This document shows positions 13,389-43,835 of a stretch of 64,000 bases of DNA, one piece after another. Below the pieces are notes generated by a model that did not search any database, had not been told where the DNA came from, and saw only the letters and a list, made by a program, of their open reading frames with translations. The stretch is from assembly GCF_050920415.1 (NCBI RefSeq), contig NZ_CP169309.1; one strand, written 5' to 3'. How positions within the stretch are numbered: the first letter of the stretch is position 1; every line of letters starts with the position of its first letter. The stretch is from Escherichia coli (GTDB taxonomy: Bacteria; Pseudomonadota; Gammaproteobacteria; Enterobacterales; Enterobacteriaceae). The translations under genes and the position numbers were made by a program.

Positions 13389-13412
13389 AGACCGCCATCC
13401 GGCGGTCTTTTC
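13389..13412 (+). terminator. rho-independent terminator after cro-like gene
   Basis: gaccgcc-atcc-ggcggtc then TTTTCAT. Confidence 0.65.
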
Positions 13413-13421
13413 ATATCTATT

Positions 13422-13436
13422 CGTACCTTAAAGGTA
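13422..13436. promoter_or_regulatory. operator-like palindrome GTACC TTAAA GGTAA ahead of replication operon
   Basis: Immediately after cro terminator. Confidence 0.5.
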
Positions 13437-13517
13437 ATAAAAAACCAAATCTGGTTGATCTTTTTTTTGTGTCAGCACAAAATAACCGTAATCCCAATAC
13501 TAATAACAGGGCTTACC

Positions 13518-13718
13518 ATGGAAATCATTACACGTATTGATGCCGCAAAGCGCGGACTTAAACGCTACTACACCGGAAAACCATGTAAGCACGGACATGA
13601 CAGTGAACGCTGGGTTTACAACGGACACTGTGTTGAGTGCACCATGGAATCAAACCGTCGCATTAGGGCAGAGATTAAGCAGATCATGATTAATTCCTCC
13701 CCACAACATTCAAGCTGA
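13518..13718 (+). CDS. small zinc-finger protein
   Basis: 66 aa from internal ATG; KPCKHGHDSERWVYNGHCVEC Cys/His cluster. Confidence 0.45.
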   Translation: MEIITRIDAAKRGLKRYYTGKPCKHGHDSERWVYNGHCVECTMESNRRIRAEIKQIMINSSPQHSS

Positions 13719-13733
13719 TAGCGGAGATTAATC

Positions 13734-14549
13734 ATGAGCAGACATGCAACAGATTGGGCCTGGGAGACAGATCCAGGCAGCTCATCATTAAAGCTCATAC
13801 TGCTCTCGATGGCTGACAGAGCCGATGAATATAACCTCTGCTACCCCAGCATAGAACGCCTCGTTAAAGACACTTGCCTGAATAAAAAAACCGTGCAGGC
13901 CGGGCTTATATCGCTCATGAAAATGGGGCTTATTTCAGATACCGGAGAGAGAAAGGGAGCGACGAAAAGAGTGCGGGTTTTCTCTCTTAATATAACCAAA
14001 AACGGGAACATTAAAGGCAACCGGGAAGGGAGTAATGAACCCGAAAACGGAAATGTTACCGAAAACGGGAATATACCCAAAAACGGGATGTTGAATGATC
14101 CCAAAAACGGGATGTTGAATGATCCCAAAAACGGGATCCAGAACCAGTCATATAACCAGTCATTTAACCAAGAGAGGGGGAGCAGGACAAAAACCGGGGA
14201 TTCTGTGCCTCATGACCCCGGCGCAAACAACGCCGTGATGAATAACTTTGTTCCTCCTGGTGGGCCAGGGCAATTAGGCAAATTTGTCATGCATGAACAA
14301 TGGCAACCATCAGATGACTTTCTTCGGAAAAGCTCATTGCAGGGAATCTACCTGGACAGTCTGCCAACGGCACAGGAACTTGCAGAGTTCAGAATTTACT
14401 GGATGGCTGAGGGTAAGGCATACCATCAGGCACAGTGGGAGCAGAAGCTGGCAAGGCGGCTGCAGATTAGCAGACAGAAGCAATCAACATTACCTGATAA
14501 CAACGTTCCGCACTGGAACAGCCCTGAAGCGTGGGAGGATTTCTTGTGA
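13734..14549 (+). CDS. replication initiator (lambda O-like role) with internal iterons
   Basis: 271 aa; N-terminal HTH-like domain; repeat-encoded ENGN/PKNG peptide stretch; directly upstream of P-like gene. Confidence 0.6.
   Translation: MSRHATDWAWETDPGSSSLKLILLSMADRADEYNLCYPSIERLVKDTCLNKKTVQAGLISLMKMGLISDTGERKGATKRVRVFSLNITKNGNIKGNREGSNEPENGNVTENGNIPKNGMLNDPKNGMLNDPKNGIQNQSYNQSFNQERGSRTKTGDSVPHDPGANNAVMNNFVPPGGPGQLGKFVMHEQWQPSDDFLRKSSLQGIYLDSLPTAQELAEFRIYWMAEGKAYHQAQWEQKLARRLQISRQKQSTLPDNNVPHWNSPEAWEDFL
13998..14141. repeat. iteron array (AAAACGGGA core, ~6 copies incl. two exact 24-bp tandem units at 14076-14099 and 14100-14123); putative ori
   Basis: Direct repeats read in sequence inside initiator gene. 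Confidence 0.6.
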
Positions 14550-15331
14550 ACAACGTTTTTACCGCGATACAAAACCGTGACGGAGAAGCCCTTTCTCGCA
14601 TGTCAGGTTATGAGCATCAATACGTCAACAATGACAATGTGGTGAACATGTCAGCAGAGAGGCTTGTTGATGCCCTTTTCAAACAGCTGAAACAACTGTT
14701 TCCGGCGGCAGTAGTAACCAACCTGAAGACGCCAGAGCAGGAAGTTGCTGCAAAACAGCAGTGGATTGCTGCGTTTGCCGAAGGTGGGATCCGAACCCGT
14801 GAACAGGTTTCTGCTGGTATGCGCCACGCTCGCGCCAGTGAGTCTCCGTTCTGGCCGTCGCCAGGGCAATTCATCAAGTGGTGTAAAGACAGCAAGATGG
14901 TTCTTGGCGTCACCATTGACGATGTGATGGCGGAGTTTCACCGGTACAGCAAGGAAAAAAGTTTATATCCTGGTGGTCCCGAAAGATTCCCGTGGCGACA
15001 TCCGGTTATGTACTGGGTCGTATGTGATACCCGCCGTGCAATGTATCAGCGCCAGCTTAGCGAGATTGAGGTTGAGAAACACGCGCGCAGGCTGCTCGAT
15101 GATTGGGCGAAAAAGGTGGCTTCCGGACAGCAGATACCCGATCCGGTGATCAGCATACAGGCAAAGCCAGAGCCCATGAGTACGCCTCCGGACACAGGGA
15201 GAGACGTTTACCATCCACCAGGGCGAAGTTTCGGGTGTATGCCTAACGCCGCCACCCTGGGGGGAATAACACCGGCGCAGTGGCTAATGGAGGAATACAG
15301 GCGGGGAAAGGCGGCAGGATTTATCAAGTAA
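14546..15331 (+). CDS. lambda P-like replicative helicase loader
   Basis: Alignable by eye to lambda P: ...QWIAAFAEGGIRTREQVSAGMRHAR...PFWPSPGQFIKWCK; GTG start overlaps initiator stop. Confidence 0.7.
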   Translation: MNNVFTAIQNRDGEALSRMSGYEHQYVNNDNVVNMSAERLVDALFKQLKQLFPAAVVTNLKTPEQEVAAKQQWIAAFAEGGIRTREQVSAGMRHARASESPFWPSPGQFIKWCKDSKMVLGVTIDDVMAEFHRYSKEKSLYPGGPERFPWRHPVMYWVVCDTRRAMYQRQLSEIEVEKHARRLLDDWAKKVASGQQIPDPVISIQAKPEPMSTPPDTGRDVYHPPGRSFGCMPNAATLGGITPAQWLMEEYRRGKAAGFIK

Positions 15332-15336
15332 TACCA

Positions 15337-15357
15337 GCGCGATAGCGCATTTTTTTA
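15337..15357 (+). terminator. weak terminator after replication genes
   Basis: short GC hairpin then TTTTTTT. Confidence 0.35.
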
Positions 15358-15368
15358 CGTCTCAATAA

Positions 15369-15383
15369 TTACCTATAAGGTAA
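15369..15383. promoter_or_regulatory. operator-like palindrome TTACC TATAA GGTAA
   Basis: Intergenic, upstream of 15449 operon. Confidence 0.5.
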
Positions 15384-15430
15384 CAAAATATTCTAAACTC
15401 TATTGATTTAGTGTCTTATGTGGTTTTTAA

Positions 15431-15796: not shown

Positions 15797-15857
15797 ATCG
15801 ACGATCTTTTTAGTTATCAATGTAATCAATAAGTTATGTGGATAAGCGAGGGTAAAG

Positions 15858-21220: not shown

Positions 21221-21297
21221 TGGCGTGGCATGCAGGATTCGAACCTGCGACCGACCGCTTAGAAGGCGGTTGCTCTGTCCAACTGAGCTAATGCCAC
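21221..21297 (-). tRNA. tRNA-Arg (anticodon UCU)
   Basis: Minus-strand cloverleaf: acceptor GTGGCAT/ATGCCAC, anticodon loop CUUCUAA, T-arm GGTTCGAATCC, 3' CCA. Confidence 0.85.
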
Positions 21298-39684: not shown

Positions 39685-41940
39685 ATGACGGTCTCAACCG
39701 AAGTTGACCACAACGAATACACAGGCAATGGCGTTACGACTTCATTCCCTTATACCTTTAGGGTTTTCAAGGAATCTGATCTGGTAGTGCAGGTGGTTGA
39801 CCTTGACGAAAATATCGCTGTGCTGGCTCTGGATACTGATTACACTGTCACTGGGGCTGGTGGATATAACGGCGGTAATGTAATTCTGTCGAAGGCGTTA
39901 GCTAACGGTTACCAGATTTCTATATCACGAGAGCTCCCGGTTACGCAGGAAACTGATTTGCGTAATCAGGGGAAGTTCTTTGCAGAAGTGCATGAGGATG
40001 CTTTTGATAAGCTAACGATGCTGATCCAGCAGGTTCGAAGTTGGTTTAGCTTGGCGCTGCGCAAGCCGTCATTCGTGGCAAATTATTATAACGCGCTGAA
40101 CAACTATATTCGAAACCTGAAAGACCCGGTAAACCCGCAGGATGCATCCACAAAGAATTATGTGGACAGTACGGTTTTATCGAATATCGACCATACAATC
40201 CGTGTTCCTGATTCTTATATCGATCCGCTGCCACCTCTCGCTCAACTTGAAGGAAGCATAATCGGCATCGCCAACGGTAAGCCCGTTCCGTTCCCTGTGC
40301 CTTCAGGAACGGCGGCTGACGTATTCAACCAGTTGGCCAGCAGCGCTGACGGGAAAGGTGATGCGCTGATAACAGTGAAGCAGCCTTACCAGGGGGCAAT
40401 TTCTCTTTCGCAGCATATAAAAAATGCACAAGCCATTAGTGTTGTTGATTTTGGAGCGACAATTGATGGAACGCTTCACCCTTTAAGCGAGATATTTTCA
40501 ACACTATCAGCTGCTCAGATGGTATATCCATTTGTTTCATCTCTATCTCAATCTGTTGATTATGCTGCGCTTCAGTCCGCATGTAACACGGGAAAAACAG
40601 TGCTTATTCCAAAGGGAACTGGTTACTATAATTCAACTATTTTTCTGAAAAACTCCGTTAGGATTGTTGGAGAGGGAACTGATACAATAAATAGAGCGCA
40701 ATCATTTATGTCTATTGTTGGTAATATTTCAGCCTTTGCTTTAGATCAAGGTGATTCCCTATCGACAAAAATGATTCAGATTTTTATTGATGGTCTTTAT
40801 ATTTTCTATGATCCAGGAACCACACCAACGAATCCTGAAAATGATGGTGGGAAAATTGCATTTAATTTCTACTCGACAATTCCAAATTCAACAAGCTTGG
40901 AAATGTCTGAAATTAAAAACTGTACAGTTCATGGTGCATGGTCATGCTTTAATGATCAGACTGGCACATACTTGACAAAACTTACGAATGTGTGGGCCAG
41001 AAACTGCCATAATGGTTTTACAAAAGGAACTGGCACTACCATTCTGATGGAAAGATGTTATACATCTGGATGTATATCACCATATCAGTTTGGTTCTGTC
41101 TTTGCAGCTACAATGATTAACTGTGCCATGGATGGATCAAATATTTCGTTAAACGCAGGTTCGCTTGGTGGGGCTGGCGTTCATGTTCTTAACACACATA
41201 GTTTTAACATTATTGGTTTTGATGCGGAGGGTAACACCATCTCTACAGATGGTTATGGAGAGGCAGCACTATTCCATTTCGAAAATAGTAGTGGTGGCAT
41301 TTCTGGCCTGACTGCACATCAGAACAGCATGCGAAGTGTTGCGCCAAGTGATGCTGGTGTAGTTTCCTACATCAGGGCGTCAGGTAGCAGCGATGTTAAA
41401 ATTGAGTCATCAGAAGATGATTTATCTGACACCAACACAGTTGCATATACTGGGTCTGGGTATCCCATCATGCTACATGCAACTGACACAGCTAAAATAA
41501 GCGTCTTTAATAGCAGATTCAGGGCGACTACCACTGGTACCCCTGTCTTAAGTACGCTAAGTACTGGTGATGTATCATGGTATGACTGCCCTAAAAAAAC
41601 AGGACTTATCGTAGATGGTTATTCACAAATAACATCTAAGGAAGGATTGCAAACATCATGCTTCTATACCAGTAAAGGCTCTACTGCTGTTGCTGAAAAT
41701 ACTCCGACAACACTTTTCTCTCTACCAGATTCGCAAGGTACTTACATTATTAGCGTATGGGTGGCTGGAAGCGGAGAAAATTACGCATCTACACAACTGG
41801 CAATGTATGATGGAGATAAGCTAATTCTTGTTGCGTTAAAAATAGCAGCATTTCTTAGTTTTTCAGCAACAGGGAGAATTGTAACCATTACAAGCCAGGT
41901 GGCAGGCACTTTAAACTGGACTTACACTAAAATAGGTTGA
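39685..41940 (+). CDS. tail fibre/tailspike with T7 gp17-like N-terminal adaptor domain
   Basis: 751 aa; N-terminal ...YTGNGVTTSFPYTFRVFKESDLVV...DTDYTV pattern; Gly/Ser/Thr-rich C-terminal region. Confidence 0.7.
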   Translation: MTVSTEVDHNEYTGNGVTTSFPYTFRVFKESDLVVQVVDLDENIAVLALDTDYTVTGAGGYNGGNVILSKALANGYQISISRELPVTQETDLRNQGKFFAEVHEDAFDKLTMLIQQVRSWFSLALRKPSFVANYYNALNNYIRNLKDPVNPQDASTKNYVDSTVLSNIDHTIRVPDSYIDPLPPLAQLEGSIIGIANGKPVPFPVPSGTAADVFNQLASSADGKGDALITVKQPYQGAISLSQHIKNAQAISVVDFGATIDGTLHPLSEIFSTLSAAQMVYPFVSSLSQSVDYAALQSACNTGKTVLIPKGTGYYNSTIFLKNSVRIVGEGTDTINRAQSFMSIVGNISAFALDQGDSLSTKMIQIFIDGLYIFYDPGTTPTNPENDGGKIAFNFYSTIPNSTSLEMSEIKNCTVHGAWSCFNDQTGTYLTKLTNVWARNCHNGFTKGTGTTILMERCYTSGCISPYQFGSVFAATMINCAMDGSNISLNAGSLGGAGVHVLNTHSFNIIGFDAEGNTISTDGYGEAALFHFENSSGGISGLTAHQNSMRSVAPSDAGVVSYIRASGSSDVKIESSEDDLSDTNTVAYTGSGYPIMLHATDTAKISVFNSRFRATTTGTPVLSTLSTGDVSWYDCPKKTGLIVDGYSQITSKEGLQTSCFYTSKGSTAVAENTPTTLFSLPDSQGTYIISVWVAGSGENYASTQLAMYDGDKLILVALKIAAFLSFSATGRIVTITSQVAGTLNWTYTKIG

Positions 41941-41975: not shown

Positions 41976-43835
41976 TTAAAAAATAAATGGCTTGTCATTT
42001 TTTAATTTTTTCCCAAACTCCCTTGAGCCTTCTAGAGTGAAATGACTATTATCAAAGTAAAGATAATCACCTTTAGTAGAAAGGATGTCACAATTCATTG
42101 ACTTTCCGCACTGCTCGGCAAGCGTATCTATGTATTTATACGAATGCTGGTTGCTACCAAGATAGCCTTTTATCGTATTGTTAATTTCAACTCTACTATT
42201 GTCATAATACTTTTTAGAGTATTTATTTATCCCATCAACTGTGTTTACGCCAGATTTAAAAGCAGACTTAATTATTTCCATTGGCTGTGCCGTAAACTTC
42301 ATCTTAGGCCCAAATACAATAACTTCTCCTTTAGTCCTCTCCTGTATTTTGCCTATAGAGTAAAGCATCCCGAACAGATCGCCAACGCCATAATCATCAT
42401 GAAGGATTATAATGTTAGCTTCAGCTATGGCTGGAGATGAGATTACGTCATTGAATATTTTTTTGCACTTTTCTACATAGGGCATGTCGTTTGGTGTATA
42501 ACCAAAGTTTGAACATAAGTTTGTAGTTCTTATATAAGTTATATCACCCTTCATCCCATTTTCAGTAAGTGCATAAGTCAGATCTATGCCATGAGAATTA
42601 CCGATTATTACTATTTTTTTGTCACCTGTCTTCGGTACAGGGTGAGGCTTGTCTCCATCAACCCAATACCTGTTCATTTGTTCTTTTAGCTGTTCGGACG
42701 TCATTGTGGCAAACGAAAACCTTGATGGAATTCCAGATAGCAATAGTACAGCGAAGCACAAACCAACTACACCACCTACAGGTAGCACGATTGAAGTTAA
42801 TTCATTCAAGGACCTGCCGTTTTTAAATTTTGAAAGTGCCTTTCTTGAAGGGTTTTCAATTAAATAAAATGATGCGGCACCAATAAGAATTGATAAGGCA
42901 ACACCTGATACTGTATAAACCATATCATCCATCTTATTCATTGACATATATACAACTATGGGCCAGTGAACCAGATATACCGAGTATGAAATTTTCCCAA
43001 CCCATTGAGATAATGCATTATCAAGTAATAGGTTATCTTTACATCCAAGATAAATGACAAAGAAAGTAGAAACGACTGGTATTAAGGCAAGATACCCAGG
43101 CCACTTCATTAAGCTGTTAAGCAAGACTATCCCCGATACTGCAAAGGCTATGGCAATCCATCTAAATACAGCAGTGCGTTTTGAATTTTGTATAGTAGGA
43201 AGAAGGTAGGCAAGGCCGCCAGCCAGCATCTCCCAAGCTCTGCTTGACAGAAGATAAAATGCAGCGCCCTGATTATTATAAGAAAGATACACTGAGGCAG
43301 TAAATGATATAATTGCAAGGATGGCAACAACATACCTTATATGCTTAGCGCCCAATAGCTTTGCAATCACCATCATTATGATTGGATATACCATGTAAAA
43401 CTGCCACTCTACAGAAAGCGACCATGTATGAAGAAGCCATTTCTGCTTTGATGCAGTATCAAAATAATCAATGCTATGGTAATACTCAACGTTTGAGAAA
43501 AATAAAAGGCTACTTCTTACGTGTTGAGCCAGGTATTCATATTCAGAAGGTAAAAGAATGAAGTAACCAACTATCAGAACAGCAACTGAAACTACAGTTA
43601 AAGCAGGTATAATTCTTCTTGCCCTATCAAGATAAAATCCTAACAGTGAAAAGTTTCCATTAGATATCTTTGTGTAAATTATTCCAGTCATCAGATACCC
43701 TGATATAACAAAGAATATATCTACGCCTGAAAATCCACCAGAGAACCCTTTGACTCCGAAGTGATAAAGGACAACTGCCATAACAGCAATAGCCCTAAGC
43801 CCGCCTATATCTGTTCTGTATTTTAAAGAAGACAT
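41976..43835 (-). CDS. O-antigen acyltransferase (acyltransferase-3 membrane domain + C-terminal SGNH-like domain, OafA-like)
   Basis: 619 aa; N-terminal multi-TM with ...AVVLYHF...DIFFVISGYL...; lysogenic-conversion candidate. Confidence 0.75.
   Translation of the reverse strand: MSSLKYRTDIGGLRAIAVMAVVLYHFGVKGFSGGFSGVDIFFVISGYLMTGIIYTKISNGNFSLLGFYLDRARRIIPALTVVSVAVLIVGYFILLPSEYEYLAQHVRSSLLFFSNVEYYHSIDYFDTASKQKWLLHTWSLSVEWQFYMVYPIIMMVIAKLLGAKHIRYVVAILAIISFTASVYLSYNNQGAAFYLLSSRAWEMLAGGLAYLLPTIQNSKRTAVFRWIAIAFAVSGIVLLNSLMKWPGYLALIPVVSTFFVIYLGCKDNLLLDNALSQWVGKISYSVYLVHWPIVVYMSMNKMDDMVYTVSGVALSILIGAASFYLIENPSRKALSKFKNGRSLNELTSIVLPVGGVVGLCFAVLLLSGIPSRFSFATMTSEQLKEQMNRYWVDGDKPHPVPKTGDKKIVIIGNSHGIDLTYALTENGMKGDITYIRTTNLCSNFGYTPNDMPYVEKCKKIFNDVISSPAIAEANIIILHDDYGVGDLFGMLYSIGKIQERTKGEVIVFGPKMKFTAQPMEIIKSAFKSGVNTVDGINKYSKKYYDNSRVEINNTIKGYLGSNQHSYKYIDTLAEQCGKSMNCDILSTKGDYLYFDNSHFTLEGSREFGKKLKNDKPFIF

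Follow-up and report, generated by a model that had tools for sequence, protein, structure and literature searches.

A probable replication origin within the initiator gene of a phiV10-like prophage of Escherichia coli

We analyzed a 64-kb stretch of Escherichia coli DNA (contig NZ_CP169309.1 of assembly GCF_050920415.1; hereafter the window), which comprises E. coli-type chromosome with an integrated phiV10-like prophage. The subject here is the replication initiator gene of this prophage, together with a group of direct repeats (iterons) within it that a sequence-only reading of the same DNA had proposed as a candidate replication origin. At positions 13400-15400, the window shares 97-98% identity with the temperate podoviruses phiV10, vB_EcoP_PAS61, and phiv142-3 (genus Uetakevirus). 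The RefSeq record of phiV10 labels the two genes concerned 'replication initiation protein' (DnaT family) and 'putative replication protein P', and an origin feature was not found among the annotations of that record. The locus contains the following features.

13734-14549, plus strand: replication initiator gene, 271 amino acids (aa); PHROG 1032 'replication initiation protein', E 3.6e-108
13734-13997, plus strand: region coding for the N-terminal winged-helix domain (aa 1-88), from AlphaFold2
13993-14008, plus strand: iteron 1, TAACCAAAAACGGGAA; degenerate arms, polymorphic among relatives
14038-14053, plus strand: iteron 2, AACCCGAAAACGGAAA; one mismatch in the core
14056-14071, plus strand: iteron 3, TTACCGAAAACGGGAA
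14074-14089, plus strand: iteron 4, TACCCAAAAACGGGAT; nearly invariant in 78 same-length relatives
14098-14113, plus strand: iteron 5, ATCCCAAAAACGGGAT; nearly invariant among relatives, perfect 5-bp inverted arms
14122-14137, plus strand: iteron 6, ATCCCAAAAACGGGAT; nearly invariant among relatives, perfect 5-bp inverted arms
14141-14176, plus strand: three tandem 12-mers, GAACCAGTCATA / TAACCAGTCATT / TAACCAAGAGAG, to the right of the iterons
14274-14498, plus strand: region coding for the C-terminal DnaT-like domain (aa 181-255), from PDB sequence matches
14546-15331, plus strand: lambda-P-like helicase loader gene; PHROG 109 'P-like helicase loader', E 7.2e-92

The array is made up of six direct repeats with the core AAAACGG(G/A)A and spans 13993-14137, in agreement with the sequence-only reading, which had counted at least six. 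Five copies carry the exact 9-mer AAAACGGGA (starting at 13999, 14062, 14080, 14104, and 14128), and the sixth, AAAACGGAA at 14044, has one mismatch. All of them lie on the plus strand, and no further exact AAAACGGGA was present on either strand of the window. The spacing, which had been put at about 20-24 bp, proved not to be uniform, as the start-to-start distances of the cores are 45, 18, 18, 24, and 24 bp; the rest of that description held. Two exact 24-bp tandem units (14076-14099 and 14100-14123) and a duplication of AACCAGTCAT just downstream were found where they had been reported. Tandem Repeats Finder returned a 24-bp unit, CCCAAAAACGGGATGTTGAATGAT, at 14076-14137 (2.6 copies, 100% matches), an 18-bp unit at 14039-14088, and a 12-bp unit, AACCAGTCATAT, at 14142-14170 (2.4 copies). 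In iterons 5 and 6, the inverted arms ATCCC/GGGAT flank AAAAAC to form a 16-bp hyphenated dyad. The consensus of the 12-mers is (G/T)AACCAGTCAT(A/T)(A/T).

The whole array lies within the open reading frame (ORF) 13734-14549 and encodes the repetitive ENGN/PKNG peptide that had been noticed previously (...TKNGN...EPENGNVTENGNIPKNGMLNDPKNGMLNDPKNGIQNQSYNQSFNQ). All six copies in the window share one reading frame. The iterons correspond to aa 88-135 and the 12-mers to aa 136-148, both inside a predicted disordered linker. We place this linker between two domains because Pfam matched HTH_36 at aa 18-67 (E 3.9e-10) and DnaT at aa 184-252 (E 2e-15), and because AlphaFold2 (with a 70-sequence alignment) predicted disorder between them. 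In that model, the N-domain (aa 1-88) had a predicted local distance difference test (pLDDT) score of 87-98 and the topology H-H-H-H plus a beta hairpin, the linker (aa ~90-180) had a pLDDT below 50, and the C-domain was confident. A Foldseek search with the N-domain gave weak matches to MarR-type and plasmid Rep winged-helix proteins (E 0.01-0.1). The N-domain is presumed to be the iteron-binding module.

The initiator gene shares 97-98% DNA identity with phiV10 gp43 and its relatives. The C-domain of E. coli DnaT, to which the C-domain of the initiator is homologous, binds single-stranded DNA (ssDNA) and acts in primosome assembly. Sequence matches of the initiator C-domain in PDB were to the DnaT C-terminal domain (4ou6, 6aep, and 2ru8; E 1e-19 to 1e-21), and Foldseek aligned it with the ssDNA-binding domain of E. 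coli/Salmonella DnaT (4ou6 and 6aeq), with a target-normalised TM-score of 0.85 and 53% identity for 4ou6_C. The protein as a whole was rejected as a DnaT equivalog: it scored 84.9 bits against a cutoff of 201 for NCBIfam NF002770, and only profile positions 86-169 of 179 were matched. The names 'primosomal protein' and 'DnaT', under which databases list this initiator, are misleading. Membership in the lambda O family (Pfam Phage_rep_O; PHROG 277) was also rejected, as Pfam gave only HTH_36 and DnaT and PHROG 277 was absent from the matches. The term 'O-like initiator', used in the sequence-only reading, thus fits the architecture but not the family. The initiator and lambda O both matched N-terminal parts of PHROG 678 and 345, which hints at a very remote relationship between the two sequences.

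The next gene had been called a clear lambda P homologue, and this was confirmed by BLASTP (31% identity to lambda P over 201 aa, E 2e-35) and by its PHROG 109 match. Its GTG start, placed according to the sequence and the annotation of phiV10, shares 4 nucleotides (nt), GTGA, with the end of the initiator gene, stop codon included.

To ask whether the repeats act as DNA or only as a repetitive peptide, phages that share only one domain of the initiator were compared. In the sibling Uetakeviruses TL-2011b, ZX5, and Tyrion, the DnaT-like C-domain and the P gene are kept and the N-domain is another one (PHROG 2509/9474 or 1408/16167). These three phages are without the repeats, and no obvious iteron array was detected in their linkers at the settings used. 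Their initiators represent a clean mosaic exchange exactly at the domain boundary. Conversely, tblastn with the N-domain alone retrieved phages that share only this domain, at 42-56% identity: Edno5, Vibrio Her, Acinetobacter Acb75 and LZ35, E. coli PPompW, Burkholderia Bcep176, and EBPR podovirus 1. They have other C-domains, and the next gene encodes P, a DnaB-type helicase, or an unannotated product. For example, the Edwardsiella Edno5 initiator has a lambda-O-type C-domain and is followed by P, and in Acb75 and LZ35 a DnaB-type helicase gene comes next. All of these phages carry a related core, CC(A/G)AA(A/T)(A/T)(C/T)GG, right after the domain, in variants such as ATCCCAAAATTGGGAT, CCCGAAAACGGTAC, ACCCAAATTTGGGT, ACCCAAAAACGGGA, and GTCCCGAAAACGGGAC. 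Where the N-domain identity falls to 28-32% (Stx2a_F451, Aeromonas Asa56, ZF40, and Pseudomonas phi2), quite different dyad repeats occupy the same position, a pattern that, at the level of sequence comparison, is as expected of initiator/iteron pairs. The comparisons indicate that the repeats are inherited with the N-domain, regardless of the C-domain, helicase, or loader.

We then extended the comparison to larger samples. An exhaustive search of a 1.84-billion protein library with the N-domain yielded 3704 representative homologues. Among the best 150 representatives, 120 were full-length proteins, and in these we counted the peptide motifs that correspond to translation of the core in different frames, within aa 81-200 and elsewhere in the protein.

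P[KE][NIF]G: 236 in aa 81-200, 1 elsewhere
[TSAP]QKR: 60 in aa 81-200, 2 elsewhere
PKT[GEDVA]: 36 in aa 81-200, 0 elsewhere

The motif occurred in at least two frames in 58 of these 120 proteins. As an independent set, 35 non-redundant IMG/VR loci were retrieved by N-domain similarity only, with a six-sequence alignment as the query. The core pattern was found 155 times in a 360-nt segment that covers the end of the N-domain and what follows it, compared with 8 times in 78 kb elsewhere. At least three copies of the core were present in 30 of the 35 loci, and 24 of the 35 had copies in at least two frames.

Close relatives were obtained by a related-locus search with the whole protein. As these are 95-99% identical, they are informative for polymorphism and not for covariation. 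The sequence-only reading had named loss of the repeats from close relatives as evidence against an origin; the repeats are kept in all of them. In 83 near-identical DNA relatives, gene length ranges from 792 to 852 nt and core number from 5 to 8, with length differences that always amount to whole 18- or 24-bp units; phiV10 carries an additional 12-mer. Each of the 120 closest protein clusters retains the repeats, in 5-12 copies. This copy-number polymorphism can be explained by the position of the repeats, since a disordered linker tolerates insertion or deletion of entire 18- or 24-bp units in its coding sequence and the protein stays intact. Single-base variants fall mainly in iterons 1-3 and in the 45-bp gap that separates iteron 1 from iteron 2. 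In 78 same-length relatives, hardly any variation affects iterons 4-6 or the 12-mers (3 variable sites in 101 nt), compared with 22 variable sites in the 84 nt to their left. This near-invariance fits the situation in lambda, where the iterons beside the unwinding region matter most (PMC7466680).

A second conserved element adjoins the iterons on the right. At the position of the 12-mers, nearly all homologues have 2-4 copies of 9-13-mers that contain GAACC or GAATC, in differing frames. Among most homologues, these conserved 12/13-mers rank as the gene's least stable stretch or come close to it. Within the window, the 30-mer at 14147-14176 (free energy, dG, -34.9 kcal/mol) is the least stable one in the right flank and ranks among the least stable 3.9% of the window and 1.8% of the gene.

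Taken with the sequence evidence above, the array at 13993-14137 and the 12-mers at 14141-14176 are likely to be the vegetative replication origin of the phiV10-like (Uetakevirus) prophage, placed within the linker-coding part of its initiator gene. A rival explanation would reduce the repeats to a low-complexity, slippage-prone peptide linker (PKNG/ENGN) without a function as DNA, with the origin situated elsewhere. The repeats do encode a predicted disordered linker, the six copies in the window are all in one frame, and among near-identical relatives the copy number shifts by whole in-frame 18- or 24-bp units, as slippage predicts. However, in distant homologues the core occurs at spacings that are not multiples of three and falls in two or three frames; spacings of 17, 22, 23, 25, and 34 bp cause it to be translated in all three in Bcep176 and the EBPR phage. 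In homologues that keep the frame, PKNG changes to PKIG and PKFG, and this radical replacement of the middle residue (Asn to Ile or Phe) leaves the dyad symmetry of the DNA preserved or even improved. The codons in the window are also fixed (AAC for Asn in 6 of 6 repeats and GGG for Gly in 5 of 6), and the array tracks the N-domain rather than linker length or the C-domain. The comparisons indicate that the repeats are selected as DNA and not as peptide. We regard a peptide-only role as highly improbable, and find it untenable because the core recurs in several frames, follows the N-domain, and clusters in the independent loci. It is also conceivable that the repeats are initiator-binding sites with a mainly regulatory role (autoregulation, a block to transcription ahead of the loader gene, or handcuffing for copy control), and that opening and helicase loading take place elsewhere. 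Iterons of plasmids double as control elements, no strongly AT-rich tract adjoins the array, and one iteron-like palindrome lies upstream, at 13443-13456. Nevertheless, the core forms no second cluster elsewhere in the 64-kb window, and in the 35 independent loci only the 8 copies mentioned above fall outside the segment after the domain. The low stability of the conserved 12/13-mers in most homologues and the position of the array, which matches that in lambda, P22, and L, whose in-gene iterons are taken as the origin (PMC6022878; bioRxiv 10.1101/2020.10.05.325894), also speak against a mainly regulatory role, which we consider quite unlikely.

Several observations weigh against assigning the origin to this segment. 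Direct homology between the initiator and lambda O was not demonstrable, with a BLASTP E-value of 0.07 and an hhalign probability of 0.8% for the N-domain alignment; a link between the two shows solely in the shared PHROG 678 and 345 matches. Concerted evolution of the tandem copies, instead of purifying selection, could account for the scarcity of variants in the 24-bp units. The right flank (14140-14176) is 62% A+T, and thus only weakly AT-rich compared with 77% for the tract in lambda, whose counterpart of the least stable 30-mer has a dG of -30.3 kcal/mol as against -34.9 here. The least stable 30-mer of the gene is not in the right flank but at the left edge of the array, at 13987-14016. 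Because of these two properties of the flank and the gene, the side and site of unwinding are uncertain. Finally, the enrichment of GAACC in the 64-nt right flanks of 11 loci (19 occurrences compared with 0.8 expected from the rest of the genes, and 0 of GGTTC) was noticed and tested on the same data, so that this test is post hoc and only the 35-locus set, with 34 occurrences compared with 2.2 expected, is independent.

Taking the 13-mers of oriC and iteron plasmids as a model, we infer that the 12-mers are part of the origin, most likely as an unwinding or single-strand element. We also entertain, tentatively, the wider possibility that the (G/T)AA(C/T)C 12/13-mers are an undescribed sequence-specific origin element, an unwinding or helicase-loading site that is read as ssDNA like the 13-mers of oriC and RK2, that replaces the AT-rich tract of lambda and is common to the thousands of representative phage initiators of the HTH_36 type. 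These repeats are conserved whichever C-domain, helicase, or loader is present. Alternatively, the 12/13-mers might only mark a module boundary, a 'linker' at which N-domain/iteron modules recombine with varied C-domain modules, and be no functional part of the origin. They do sit at a recombination joint, because the C-terminal domains diverge right after them and only about 8 of 150 representatives with the same N-domain have a DnaT-like C-domain. Against this, the GAACC-type motif is repeated 2-4 times at intervals of 9-13 nt (sometimes 17-21 nt), occurs in several frames, and is strand-specific (19 GAACC and 0 GGTTC). It is also kept across Burkholderia, Pseudomonas, Vibrio, Acinetobacter, and enterics even where the iterons differ, which exceeds what a recombination joint needs. 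A mere boundary role therefore seems unlikely.

If the segment is the origin, initiation could proceed as follows. An early rightward transcript would provide the initiator and, by translational coupling, the P-like loader; of this step, the order of the genes and their GTGA overlap are observed. Dimers of the N-terminal winged-helix domain would bind the 16-bp dyads ATCCC-AAAAAC-GGGAT, the three rightmost best, as suggested by the dyad symmetry, the co-inheritance of domain and repeats, and the analogy with lambda O. The multi-site nucleoprotein complex, with bends at the A-tracts, would then stress and melt the neighboring low-stability (G/T)AACC 12-mer segment. The DnaT-like C-domain may hold the opened strand and/or dock the complex of P-like loader and DnaB, after which the host DnaB helicase would be loaded. 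The binding, opening, and loading steps are modeled on lambda (PMC6022878, PMC7466680) and on the role of the E. coli DnaT C-domain (4ou6).

Iterons inside the initiator gene are the textbook design of the lambda origin. The lambda iterons are hyphenated dyads around an A-tract in the middle of the initiator gene (PMC6022878, PMC7466680), and in the lambda record they are ATCCCTCAAAACGAGGGA-like, with the form ATCCCTC-AAAAC-GAGGGA and 7-bp arms. In its position in the linker, its hyphenated dyads around an A-tract, and its co-inheritance with the N-domain, the prophage array appears to follow the lambda-like organisation that the sequence-only reading had suggested. In both systems, the iterons lie between a DNA-binding N-domain and a partner-binding C-domain (roles that are predicted for the prophage protein), their spacing is irregular (about 18-24 bp), and the P-homologue loader overlaps the initiator stop by 4 nt, as in lambda O-P. 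The iteron number varies among relatives in both cases, with 4 in lambda, 6 in Stx phages, and 5-12 here (PMC7466680, PMC6022878). There are also clear differences. The present initiator lies outside the lambda O family (HTH_36 plus DnaT), and its C-domain resembles host DnaT and not the C-domain of lambda O. The arms are 5 bp and the sites 16 bp, compared with 7 bp and 18 bp in lambda. The lambda iterons are followed on their right by a 39-40-bp tract of ~77% A+T, whereas three strand-specific 12-mers with 62% A+T are found here.

Comparable sequence evidence has led to acceptance of the iterons inside gene 18 of P22 and of phage L, a non-lambda initiator gene, as the likely origin (bioRxiv 10.1101/2020.10.05.325894). 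According to that paper, differing families of lambdoid initiators each have their own iterons within the coding region, as in the prophage; the repeat sequences are different, and the partner is the DnaB-type helicase gp12 and not a P-type loader. With E. coli DnaT, the initiator shares the C-terminal ~75 residues, which are homologous to the ssDNA-binding domain. It lacks the N-terminal part of DnaT, has in its place what appears from sequence to be a winged-helix domain of the sequence-specific type, and is encoded in a phage replication operon. In oriC and in the origins of iteron plasmids (for example, RK2 oriV, R6K, and pPS10), initiator-binding repeats lie beside tandem repeats of ~12-13 nt that form the DNA-unwinding element, and the initiator is a winged-helix protein. 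The prophage locus is similar in that direct repeats lie beside short tandem 12-mers, and the N-domain had weak Foldseek matches to plasmid Rep (5kbj and 4pql). It differs from these origins in its location within the initiator ORF, in an initiator that has one winged-helix domain and not two, in 12-mers that are not AT-rich, and in the absence of a DnaA box in or beside the array.

The conclusion that this is a new example of a known design, an origin on the lambda plan, is well supported, and it confirms rather than surprises. In the literature, no description of this phiV10-like origin was found (for phiV10, epsilon15, Uetakevirus, and primosomal origin), although a mention in the original epsilon15 and phiV10 genome papers is not excluded. 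The assignment locates the origin from which the phiV10-like temperate phages of E. coli, O157:H7 phages among them, probably replicate. It also suggests that proteins widely labeled 'primosomal protein/DnaT' in E. coli genomes are phage origin-binding initiators. The order of a winged-helix N-domain, CC(A/G)AA(A/T)(A/T)(C/T)GG iterons, and GAACC 12/13-mers provides a simple rule for locating candidate origins in many uncultivated phage genomes. Further uses would be the construction of mini-replicons, the prediction of incompatibility or exclusion between co-resident prophages, and the interpretation of the length polymorphism of the gene.

Several minor observations concern the array and its surroundings. 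The gap between iterons 1 and 2 (…AACCGGGAAGGGAGTAATG…) contains the most polymorphic stretch of the gene, 14023-14033, with 9 variable sites in 11 nt among the 78 same-length relatives; this segment may be a decayed iteron. A reading of the array as structured single-stranded DNA or RNA was rejected, as the fold of 13985-14180 had a z-score of -0.38 relative to shuffled sequences. Terminator-like matches on the minus strand at 14084-14127 were likewise dismissed as a by-product of neighboring iteron arms and the T-run of the A-tract. In the GC/AT-skew profile, the array is A-rich on the plus strand, without an informative skew switch. DnaA boxes were not found within or beside the initiator gene or the array. 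In the window as a whole, DnaA-box-like 9-mers (TTATCCACA, at most one mismatch) number 27, compared with a mean of 13.3 in shuffled sequences, and no shuffle reached 27. Two of the boxes are perfect, at 3154-3162 and 15837-15845; the latter, on the minus strand, is the nearest to the initiator gene.

Upstream of the initiator gene, a lone iteron-like palindrome, AACCAAATCTGGTT, was found in the intergenic region at 13443-13456, between a terminator (13389-13408) and the ORF 13518-13718. It may serve the initiator as an operator or have arisen by chance, and the independent homologous loci have no general site upstream. The ORF at 13518-13718, directly upstream of the initiator gene, encodes 66 aa, matches PHROG 1081 (E 8e-43), and is conserved in phiV10 (gp42). 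Its product has four Cys/His residues in a CxxH…CxxC-like pattern. The remaining prophage features that we located are listed below.

6254-7504: integrase gene (PHROG 1), marking one end of the prophage
9049-9930, minus strand: RecT-like gene
9927-10748, minus strand: RecE-like gene (exonuclease VIII-like)
21221-21297, minus strand: tRNA-Arg(TCT) gene within the prophage
39685-41940: tailspike gene
41976-43835, minus strand: O-antigen acetylase gene (serotype-converting moron), marking the other end of the prophage

Segments of the phiV10 type were also encountered in two larger phage records. BP9 (PP488543.1, a 138-kb record classed as a lytic Vequintavirus) contains, at 134103-137076, a repressor fragment and replication module 97-98% identical to those of temperate phiV10-type phages, and phage PH444 (PP350014.1, a 115-kb record) likewise contains both at 97-98% identity. 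In BP9, the segment is at the extreme end of the record. Both cases look like chimeric assembly or prophage contamination and not real gene transfer. Lastly, the RecE-like and RecT-like genes of the prophage are two abutting ORFs (9049-10748), whereas the phiV10 RefSeq record annotates a single RecE-RecT fusion (1-1394 of the phiV10 locus compared).

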